The notes under the pieces are model-generated. The model saw only the letters and a list, made by a program, of their open reading frames with translations. It was not told the DNA's origin and did not search any database. The position numbers and the translations under genes were made by a program. From Patescibacteria group bacterium (GTDB taxonomy: Bacteria; Patescibacteriota; Minisyncoccia; Portnoybacterales; GWB1-42-6): 27,643 nt of DNA. The DNA lies in the NCBI GenBank assembly GCA_018826025.1, contig JAHKAK010000007.1:1-27643 (forward strand), read 5' to 3'. Below are positions 13,061-13,987 of the stretch, piece by piece (within the stretch, counting starts at the first letter, position 1; each line of letters opens with the position of its first letter).

Positions 13061-13214
13061 AGCGAGGCTCCCGCTGAGAAAAATGTGTCGCAGACGCCTC
13101 CAGGTATTTGTTGTTTTACGCGAACGAGGCGGCGAGACACAAGCCGCGGCTGGTTGTAAAATTTATACTGGCACTCGTAGCCGACGGCGGTTTTTGGAGG
13201 CGGGGGCCGAGCGA
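13061..13214. repeat. 154-nt multi-stem element, copy 1 (immediately after yqeY stop)
   Basis: Four conserved blocks (42, 28, 13, 37 nt; 3 mismatches in total) shared with 13833-13987. Confidence 0.92.
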
Positions 13215-13218
13215 AGTT

Positions 13219-13716
13219 TTACTTCTCCAATTCTTCTTTCACTATTTTATTTACCATCCCCCCATCCGCTTTACCTTTAACACGCGGCATTAAAACTTTC
13301 ATAATTTTACCCAAATCCACCACTCCAACAGCACCTGATTCCGTGATTGATTCTTGAACAATTTTCCTGATTTCCTCTTCCCCCATTTGCTCCGGTAAAT
13401 AAACGGTTAAAATTGCCAATTCCGCCTCTTCCTGCGCCGCCAATTCCGGCCGCCCGCCGGTTTTATATTGTTCAATGGAATCCTTACGCCGTTTGGCTTC
13501 GGCGCCGATAACCGCTAAAACCTCTTCGTCCAGCAACTGGCTATCTTTCACCAAAACCGCTTCGTCTTGCTGCCCCGTCTTCACAAGTTTTGTGCGCTTT
13601 TCCGTCTCTTTATTTTTAAGACTGGAATTAAGCAGGCGCAAAACCGACACCTTTAATTCCTCTTTAGCCTTAAAAGCGTCTTTGAAATCTTGGTTGATTT
13701 TTTCTTTTAGAGTCAT
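13219..13716 (-). CDS. GatB/YqeY domain protein
   Basis: Start moved to MTLKEKIN; AFKAKEELKVSVLRLL..E..K.R.DSIEQY..GGR.ELA..E..EL..L..YLPEQM..KGKADG. Confidence 0.93.
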   Translation of the reverse strand: MTLKEKINQDFKDAFKAKEELKVSVLRLLNSSLKNKETEKRTKLVKTGQQDEAVLVKDSQLLDEEVLAVIGAEAKRRKDSIEQYKTGGRPELAAQEEAELAILTVYLPEQMGEEEIRKIVQESITESGAVGVVDLGKIMKVLMPRVKGKADGGMVNKIVKEELEK

Positions 13717-13832
13717 AGCATTCACGAACAACGCTAATCAGAAGCGAATAATGCTAATAGATTATTTTATTCGCGTTTTTAGTAATTACTCATTATATAG
13801 ATTAACATCTACCCAAGACGCCCAAACCTTAA

Positions 13833-13987
13833 AGCGAGGCTACCGCCGAGAAAAATGTGTCGCAGACGCCTCCACTATGTTGTCTGCGTACTCTTTATGA
13901 GGCGGCGAGACACAAGCCGCGGCTGGCATCATACTTTATACTGGCACGCTTAGCCGACGGCGGTTTTTGGAGGCGGGAGCCGAGCGA
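13833..13987. repeat. 155-nt multi-stem element, copy 2 (abuts rpsU stop)
   Basis: Direct repeat of 13061-13214; begins at the base after the rpsU TAG on the minus strand. Confidence 0.92.

Follow-up and report, generated by a model that had tools for sequence, protein, structure and literature searches.

The miniature inverted-repeat transposable elements (MITEs) ERIC/IRU of enterobacteria, Correia/NEMIS of Neisseria and BOX/RUP of pneumococcus occur in both orientations, and the repetitive extragenic palindromes (REPs) of Escherichia coli stabilise the mRNA upstream of them. The internal loops of the IS110 bridge RNA are the parts that match target and donor. BOX has a modular make-up in which the ends are fixed and the interior varies (in part after PMC3184786). 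The bcr1 repeat of the Bacillus cereus group is described as ∼155 bp long and transcribed, with a predicted cruciform-like fold of two stem-loops that is kept by compensatory changes (PMC3184786). The present analysis concerns a 27,643-nt stretch of DNA from a Patescibacteria group bacterium (contig JAHKAK010000007.1 of assembly GCA_018826025.1; hereafter the window), in which two copies of a repeat, termed family A, bracket the gene yqeY. Family A is an uncatalogued family of ∼150–190-nt non-coding interspersed repeats of Patescibacteria. The reading preferred here, with somewhat more confidence than doubt, is that it represents a new family of MITE/bcr1-like structured repeats, sense-oriented in operon spacers, whose fold is kept by selection.

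All features of the locus lie on the minus strand. Copy 2 (13803..13991, with a three-way-junction core at 13834-13987) scored 202 bits (E = 2e-56) and copy 1 (13031..13218, core 13061-13214) 195 bits (E = 2e-54) against R1, a covariance model made from the copies of this genome. The first base of the copy 2 core stands directly 3' of the stop codon of rpsU (ribosomal protein S21, 13988..14254; Pfam Ribosomal_S21, E = 1.2e-11), whose TAG at 13988-13990 abuts the copy. The copy 1 core begins 4 nt 3' of the stop codon of yqeY (GatB/YqeY-domain protein, 13219..13731 with a probable ATG at 13716; Pfam YqeY, E = 3e-45). A sequence-only reading of the window had pointed out direct repeats bracketing yqeY at these distances from the two stop codons, and pairwise alignment gave the same arrangement. 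It also bore out the near-fixed scaffold of that reading, the two copies differing by 3 scattered mismatches in stems and junction and by three segments (23/24, 8, and 3 nt) that are largely replaced. The outer stem and two arms that it had proposed are identical to the helices predicted by RNAalifold and ViennaRNA, and in these folds the two inner hairpins contain all three replaced segments within their loops. The likeness of the two copies is far beyond chance, as seen from the blastn match (84% identity over 158 nt, E = 2e-42), seven further copies in the genome, and covarying folds. Each copy extends ∼30–60 nt further 3', with a small hairpin (CGCTC-N7-GAGCG) followed by a tail (TTTCAGAAAA); in copy 2 this weak hairpin and tail occupy ∼13803-13833.

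The source genome (G000; 0.9 Mb, 121 contigs, 43% G+C) contains about nine family A copies. Searches with R1 revealed 1–18 copies in 14 of the 16 genomes of the taxonomic family, which are Portnoybacteria-like members of the candidate phyla radiation (CPR), the range over all 16 being 0–18, and no family A copy in 43 other genomes of the order. With a second model (R2), built from 57 hits, homologues that are diverged yet full-length were detected in 12 of 149 further genomes drawn from the class and in 3 of ∼140 genomes belonging to other classes of the phylum. Assemblies tend to break at the repeats: C10:14048-14361 and C35:1-240 of G000 overlap across one family A copy with a single nucleotide difference, the assembly having broken inside the repeat, and Logan contigs likewise end at both window copies. 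Copy numbers in metagenome-assembled genomes are therefore lower bounds. The matches listed from a degenerate pattern scan were mostly due to chance, with four of the five that were re-scored with R1 being true family A copies. Weak 70–90-nt matches to R1, considered as possible tRNA-like sequences, proved to be repeats of family B, described below. The whole window gave no match to Rfam 15 at the gathering score and the element none at E values up to 10; families B and C were also without an Rfam match. Full-text literature searches turned up no account of repeats of this kind from CPR bacteria.

The fold of family A is a closed three-way junction, in which a long terminal stem (P1/P1b) carries the hairpins P2 (loop L2, ∼27 nt) and P3 (loop L3, 25–27 nt). 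In copy 1 the 5' strand of P1 (GGCCCCCGC, 13200..13208) pairs with 13066-13074, with a TCGCTC motif at 13209-13214 preceding it and a second at 13060-13065 after the partner strand. P1b, formed by an A-tract (AAAAA, 13191..13195) and a U-tract (13079-13083), closes the junction. From fold and alignment, the 5' strand of P2 (GCCGTCGGCT, 13179..13188) is matched to 13142-13151 and encloses the 27-nt L2 (13152-13178), which contains the 8- and 3-nt variable segments. The 5' strand of P3 (TGTGTCTCGCCGCCTC, 13126..13141) is matched to 13084-13101 and encloses L3 (∼13102-13125), the 23/24-nt variable segment. P3 includes a G·U pair that is almost invariant, being present in 39 of 43 sequences of the taxonomic-family set and in 18 of 18 of the distant set. 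The minimum free energy of copy 1 is -56.3 kcal/mol (z = -2.1).

Covariation strongly supports this fold. In the taxonomic-family set of 44 distinct copies, 92% of the cells were paired and 27 of the 35 pairs were compensatory, and the corresponding values for 20 distant copies were 89% and 30 of 35. None of 500 shuffles per set reached the observed values, and partners slid out of register paired in 31–50% of cases. The P1 pairs covary, as does P1b, whose pairs were counted separately by script: in the distant homologues they were 88% paired, a value equalled by none of 500 shuffles, with AAAAA/UUUUU in some copies and GCGGAA/UUCCGC in others. P1 and P1b together form a terminal inverted repeat of 17–20 bp, which in the distant homologues extends 5–8 bp further into the flanks. 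Because P1b covaries, also to sequences other than U, the run of five U residues after P3 is part of a helix and not the tail of an intrinsic terminator, and a consensus terminator scan flagged nothing in the element. A kissing interaction between L2 and L3 was likewise discarded, since the loops showed no consistent complementarity and their best matches were no better than those of shuffled loops.

The copies occupy operon spacers, extending from a point 0–4 nt past the stop codon of the preceding gene almost to the start codon of the following one. A same-strand open reading frame (ORF) ends 4–12 nt 5' of P1 in 30 of the 44 copies, with a mode at 9–10 nt, two of these ORFs being rpmJ of 37 residues. 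Most of the remaining copies lie at contig ends, are rearranged, or have a fragment of another repeat on their 5' side. The next gene is on the same strand and usually starts 17–110 nt 3' of P1. No clear antisense copy was seen among the 44 copies examined within the taxonomic family, and one distant homologue (L305) is antisense between two genes. The flanking genes are housekeeping operon partners. Younger, near-identical copies, found in this genome and its sister species, are located at rpsU|yqeY, yqeY|ybeY, murA|mreB, rny|ymdB, dnaJ|x, wzy|glycosyltransferase, and class I aminoacyl-tRNA synthetase|recO, and older copies common to several genera at rplJ|rplL, rpsL|rpsG, rpsM|rpsK, rpmJ|rpsM, and x|gyrA. 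The genes downstream (yqeY, ybeY, mreB, ymdB, recO, rplL, rpsG, rpsK, gyrA, ddl, a Mur ligase with Mur_ligase_M/C domains, and a glycosyltransferase) have no functional class in common, which argues against a riboswitch or a specific ribosomal-protein leader.

At orthologous sites (rplJ|rplL, rpsL|rpsG, rpsM|rpsK, and murA|mreB) the scaffold was 0.62–0.91 identical, with 0.33–0.60 at the four-fold sites of the flanking genes and 0.23–0.70 in the loops, two pairs with fewer than 20 four-fold sites having been set aside. The contrast is clearest for rplJ|rplL, compared between two genera (scaffold 0.88 versus four-fold sites 0.51). The subtype found there occurs once per genome and, therefore, gene conversion from other copies cannot explain the conservation of its scaffold. 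Thus, at fixed loci, purifying selection acts on the scaffold, which changes more slowly than four-fold sites. Divergence of the loops is roughly neutral; their length is kept, and they show weak consensus motifs rich in A. L3 has two drifting lineages, which by eye in the alignment are found in all combinations with two subtypes of P3 and so point to recombination among copies. The confinement of variation to the loops is thus explained by selection on the scaffold together with neutral, partly recombined loops.

A near-identical scaffold with replaced loop segments is also what would be expected of a guide-like RNA whose loops specify targets, such as the bridge RNA of IS110 or the omega RNA of TnpB, and the sequence-only reading had raised a programmable scaffold of this kind. 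Loop identity or complementarity to the copy's own flanks (within 200 nt) was, however, in no excess over that to the flanks of other copies, and loop 12-mers had no matches in the rest of the genome beyond sister copies or low-complexity sequence. As the loops match neither flanks nor genome and do not pair with one another, and as L3 drifts neutrally in two lineages instead of differing uniquely from copy to copy, a guide function is not supported. TnpB (PF07282) gave no match over the cut-off, and IS110 (PF01548) was found in one of the 16 taxonomic-family genomes and not in G000. The broader proposal of a mobile structured element with exchangeable segments stands in that family A is multi-copy, with a conserved fold, a fixed scaffold and mobile sites; it falls where the segments were to be interchangeable guides, and their exchange is better explained by mosaicism among copies and relaxed constraint on the loops.

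The same alternative has a second form, an attC-like site that would make yqeY an excisable cassette. Direct repeats do bracket yqeY both in G000 (family A) and in the sister species G001, where two 99%-identical copies of family B occupy the spacers in which G000 carries family A. The order rpsU-yqeY-ybeY is, however, a conserved core arrangement with or without repeats, almost free of spacers in the relative L124, which does not fit yqeY being a cassette. Relatives hold unrelated elements in both spacers around the gene. At the level of sequencing-run contigs, no deletion or circle joints at homologous positions of the repeats were seen. One metagenome contig (run X8) joins 13863 back to 13021 ("goes back 843", with a shorter side of 32 nt); this joint is not at homologous positions and therefore does not represent a simple circle or duplication of yqeY, and it probably derives from a repeat in another organism. 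An integron attC identity was set aside on the grounds that the flanking genes are core genes in conserved order, no search with an intI model having been made. In either form, guide or cassette, this alternative is very improbable.

Sites of family A differ between related genomes, and the element is therefore mobile on an evolutionary time scale. At rplJ|rplL, G002 has an empty spacer (24 nt) and G003 a 45-nt mini hairpin consisting of P1 alone; in G001 a mini copy accompanies the full one, and G000, G004, and G012 each carry the full copy. In metagenomic relatives the rpsU|yqeY and yqeY|ybeY spacers are filled by family A, by family B, or by one of several unrelated palindromic elements, or they are all but missing, as in L124 (7 and ∼0 nt, respectively). 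A clean empty rpsU|yqeY site was not found within the genus, the spacers of G002 and G003 being too diverged or holding other elements, so that the usable empty sites are rplJ|rplL of G002 and those of L124. New sites have thus been gained, and old copies lost, reduced to the P1-only hairpin, or recombined with sister families. Taken with the terminal inverted repeats and the small, non-coding, multi-copy nature of the units, these presence/absence differences between relatives are features of a MITE.

If family A consists of MITE/bcr1-like repeats, as preferred here, its copies would be co-transcribed in polycistronic mRNA, and selection would act on the folded RNA. The element is probably transcribed, as it lies within operons. 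The closed fold could render an insertion of 150–190 nt harmless because P1 reunites the upstream stop codon with the start region of the next gene, and a further effect may be to stabilise the mRNA or to punctuate it. Since an insert in partial decay would do harm, copies would stay intact, shrink to the P1 hairpin, or vanish.

A different explanation for the same selection is that family A is a beneficial cis-acting RNA of the host, duplicated into new operons because it is useful there, either as an intercistronic processing or stabiliser signal that punctuates polycistronic mRNA and is recognised by an RNase or an RNA-binding protein, or as a device for translational coupling. In the coupling variant, ribosomes terminating 9–10 nt before P1 would re-initiate at a start codon just past P1. 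Retention at the same ribosomal-protein junctions across genera, with a scaffold slower than four-fold sites, speaks for such a role, as do the strict sense orientation and the conservation of junction nucleotides and the near-invariant G·U pair across classes. Moreover, P1 begins at what we take, from the footprint of a ribosome, to be the edge of one paused at the stop codon, and downstream genes often start 17–30 nt past P1 without an obvious Shine-Dalgarno sequence. Yet the element is dispensable, the same junctions being empty or otherwise filled in close relatives. Its spread is patchy, as the 12 of 149 and 3 of ∼140 genomes attest, its copy number varies from 0 to 18 within one taxonomic family, the genes downstream are functionally unrelated, chimeras and fragments exist, and the copy of the distant lineage L305 is antisense. 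On balance, a beneficial host RNA is a rather unlikely explanation.

A more specific proposal is that the fold is itself an RNA device. It would place the stop codon, 9–10 nt before P1, beside the start region, ∼17–30 nt after P1, for re-initiation across a 150-nt insert, as a bacterial counterpart of shunting; or a conserved host RNase would cut the mRNA at the junction, much as tRNAs punctuate mitochondrial transcripts. Such a device, if real, would account for the sense-only orientation and the set distance to the stop codon, for the conservation of nucleotides from class to class, and for the persistence of copies in operons of ribosomal proteins; it is put forward as a speculative idea with a small chance of being correct.

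Genes of the Y1_Tnp/RAYT type (RAYT, REP-associated tyrosine transposase) are present in 8 of the 16 taxonomic-family genomes and roughly track high copy number, occurring in all five genomes with at least 6 family A copies and missing from those with 0–1. They raise the possibility that family A acts at the level of DNA, its hairpins serving in single-stranded form as substrate for a strand-specific enzyme, either an HUH/Y1 transposase, as in REP/REPIN or IS200/IS605-derived systems, or another recombinase. Exposure of one strand during replication or transcription would then account for the bias in orientation, and the RNA fold would be a by-product. The covariation is equally compatible with DNA hairpins, and wobble pairs (53 G·U versus 42 A·C, excluding the invariant G·U) give no clear preference to RNA. 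The ends, furthermore, are common to families A, B, and M (the last a family of mini hairpins, see below), as if one enzyme recognised all of them. The two RAYT-like genes of G000, however, which encode 229–238 residues (C87:1922-2611, plus strand, and C65:275-991, minus strand), are flanked by REP hairpins of their own of ∼25 nt, TCTATCGAGGTTGAACCTCGATAGA (∼16 copies in the genome) and TGTTTAGGTTTAACCTAAACA, and not by the ends of family A or B; RAYT was consequently discarded as the mobiliser. R1 found no family A copy near six Y1 loci, and REP/REPIN identity was rejected because no family A unit flanks a RAYT gene. G011, G012, G007, and G015 carry 3–5 copies without a Y1 gene, and to our knowledge 25–27-nt loops and a three-way junction are unlike the known Y1 substrates. 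Selection at orthologous fixed sites would be unexpected for a purely selfish DNA substrate, and the sense orientation of every resolved copy exceeds a replication-strand bias. A DNA-level substrate is therefore regarded as improbable.

Two copies of the TCTATCGAGGTTGAACCTCGATAGA REP lie inside the C87 ORF, and this gene adjoins a tRNA-like sequence. Reverse-transcriptase genes are found in 9 of the 16 taxonomic-family genomes, without visible link to the repeat; those of G000 (RVT_1, ∼340–395 residues) are located at C108:14613-15227 (minus strand) and C60:6279-6893 (plus strand).

Several results weigh against MITE/bcr1-like repeats kept by selection on their RNA fold. In a groundwater metatranscriptome, exact contigs of yqeY, ybeY, and their neighbours were found, whereas element-like contigs were mismatched only, and contigs broke at the repeats. 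The wobble counts do not tell which strand folds. Unpaired and G·U positions are conserved across classes, a hint of a specific trans-acting partner over mere harmlessness. The sense orientation of every resolved copy in the taxonomic family and the 0–4-nt distance to the stop codon exceed in strictness what is seen with known DNA transposons, and must be due to selection or to some targeting mechanism. On the side of mobility, searches for Y1, IS110, and TnpB found no transposase tied to family A ends, and no autonomous, ORF-bearing relative with the same ends was found, all genome matches being short non-coding units (transposase families beyond these three were not searched). Finally, the TCGCTC direct repeats that flank P1 in young copies are identical at every site and absent from the empty sites (rplJ|rplL of G002, and L124), and they were not seen in old or distant copies, the distant homologues having complementary flanks instead; target-site duplication could thus not be shown at young, empty, old, or distant sites.

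Family B, a structured repeat of ∼140 nt, has about 10 matches in G000, 19 in G001, 15 each in G003 and G004, and 5 in G002. In G000 it is found at C108:8636-8779, C4:1998-2136, C10:9235-9345, C15:2967-3102, C16:2175-2276, C79:2980-3067, and C81:5041-5181, with a fragment in the window at 13000-13052. Its P1 is long (GGACTTGCTTTCTGAAA/TTTCAGAAAAGCAAATCC), its inner hairpin covaries strongly, and five of seven copies have the same stop-codon geometry as family A. The two families share the post-stop motif TCRCTCGG and a 3' module, CCGCTC-N7-GAGCG-TTTCAGAAAAG-CAAATCC-TCGCTT. Comparison with the distant homologues shows the two families to belong to one superfamily, of which family B is a diverged branch. 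The window fragment (13000..13052, minus strand) is the 3' tail that follows copy 1 (GAGCG TTTCAGAAAAT GCACA CTCGCT ...) and is 87% identical to positions 115-167 of the family B query. Since their tail equals the 3' half of the family B element, the young family A copies are A::B chimeras. The exchange of A for B around yqeY between G000 and G001 fits either an interior exchange through the shared ends or repeated colonisation of a hot spot.

Other mosaic forms are present in G000. A cluster of nested and fragmentary A and B pieces lies at C81:4890-5190, and at C81:129-324 a family A copy has its 5' third replaced, as is also the case in G004, L031, and L024. The C81 pieces look like the mosaic arrays of bacterial interspersed mosaic elements (BIMEs). 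A mini family, M, consists of ∼38-nt hairpins (GGTTCG CTCGG TCAAAATGAAAAT..ATTTTCATTTTT CCCTCG CTGCC), in which a CTCGG/CCCTCG clamp, as in A and B, is nested in a second inverted repeat (ATATAATTGG..CCAATTATAA). In G000 such mini hairpins are found on C64 (3230), C70 (7434), and C74 (1836) on the plus strand, and on C43 (7718) and C92 (3076) on the minus strand, where positions are those of the reverse complement.

The spacers around yqeY are hot spots at which repeats of many families are found. A GC-rich, conserved element of ∼200 nt (…GCTATCCACAACGCCCCGACC…GGGGCCCCACCACAGCACGC…), without a match in Rfam, lies in yqeY|ybeY of some relatives and in rpsU|yqeY of others (L074 of G002, at 1998-2212; L075 of G003; L077 of G012; L109, L111, L112, L114, and L120), and may represent an RNA gene or a further structured repeat. 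Two types of AT-rich palindromic element stand right after the yqeY stop codon in the yqeY|ybeY spacer, one (TTTTCAATT…AATTGAAAA) in L112, L113, L117, L118, and L122 and the other (CTACGAAATACGAA…TTCGTATTTCGTAG) in L115, L116, and L125. The yqeY orthologues of the relatives are 74–85% identical. On the 3' side of copy 1 lies ybeY (endoribonuclease YbeY, 12567..12995, minus strand; Pfam YbeY, E = 4e-28); the mechanical ORF reaches 13037, and the ATG conserved in the alignment with relatives, at 12995, is the probable start. Within its coding sequence, at 12921-12942 of the window, is a terminator-like, CRISPR-DR28-like hairpin (AAAAGCCGCGCAAGCGGCTTTT), which is kept in relatives as coding sequence and is probably not an RNA signal.

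The genomes of CPR/Patescibacteria are among the most compact known, and despite this compactness several folded-repeat families are tolerated by the present genome and its relatives within essential operons, including those of ribosomal proteins. Family A provides a covariation-backed model of a three-way junction and two covariance models. It also offers a testable contrast between a selected scaffold and drifting loops, along with strict sense orientation and stop adjacency. These properties make it useful for studying how mobile repeats remain harmless within operons, and the element is a candidate RNA-level signal for coupling or processing in organisms whose gene expression is almost unstudied. 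For annotation, such stretches should not be labelled as riboswitches, CRISPR-like repeats, or cassettes.

Compared with known systems, family A resembles an integron attC site in being a structured element that follows a gene's stop codon in one orientation, and the IS110 bridge RNA in that the latter is a scaffold of ∼180 nt with two variable loops. Unlike either, it has neighbours that are core genes in conserved synteny and hairpin loops without complementarity to the flanks, and the enzyme families searched yielded no recombinase partner. With REP, BIME, and REPIN sequences it shares the character of dispersed extragenic repeats of conserved structure in operon spacers, whereas REPs are hairpins of 20–40 nt, often in inverted pairs, that flank RAYT genes, and family A is a 150–190-nt three-way junction. 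The likeness to ERIC/IRU, Correia/NEMIS, and BOX/RUP is greater in outline: these too are intergenic, 100–170 bp long, have terminal inverted repeats that fold the whole unit, and come in shorter and longer variants and mosaics. ERIC/Correia/BOX-type MITEs, however, have TA or other target duplications and some have known parent insertion sequences, neither of which was found for family A, and they differ further from family A in that its resolved copies in the taxonomic family are all in sense.

By analogy of size, fold, and distribution, bcr1 is the closest described counterpart of family A. The two have no sequence similarity and belong to different phyla. Both are non-coding and ∼155 nt long, and both have folds kept by compensatory changes (PMC3184786). 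The bcr1 account gives tens of copies whose locations are not conserved between relatives, to which family A is similar, and a flanking 5-bp direct repeat, whereas no target duplication was shown for family A (PMC3184786). The strict adjacency to stop codons, sense-only orientation, and persistence in ribosomal-protein operons of family A are not among the features described there for bcr1 (PMC3184786).

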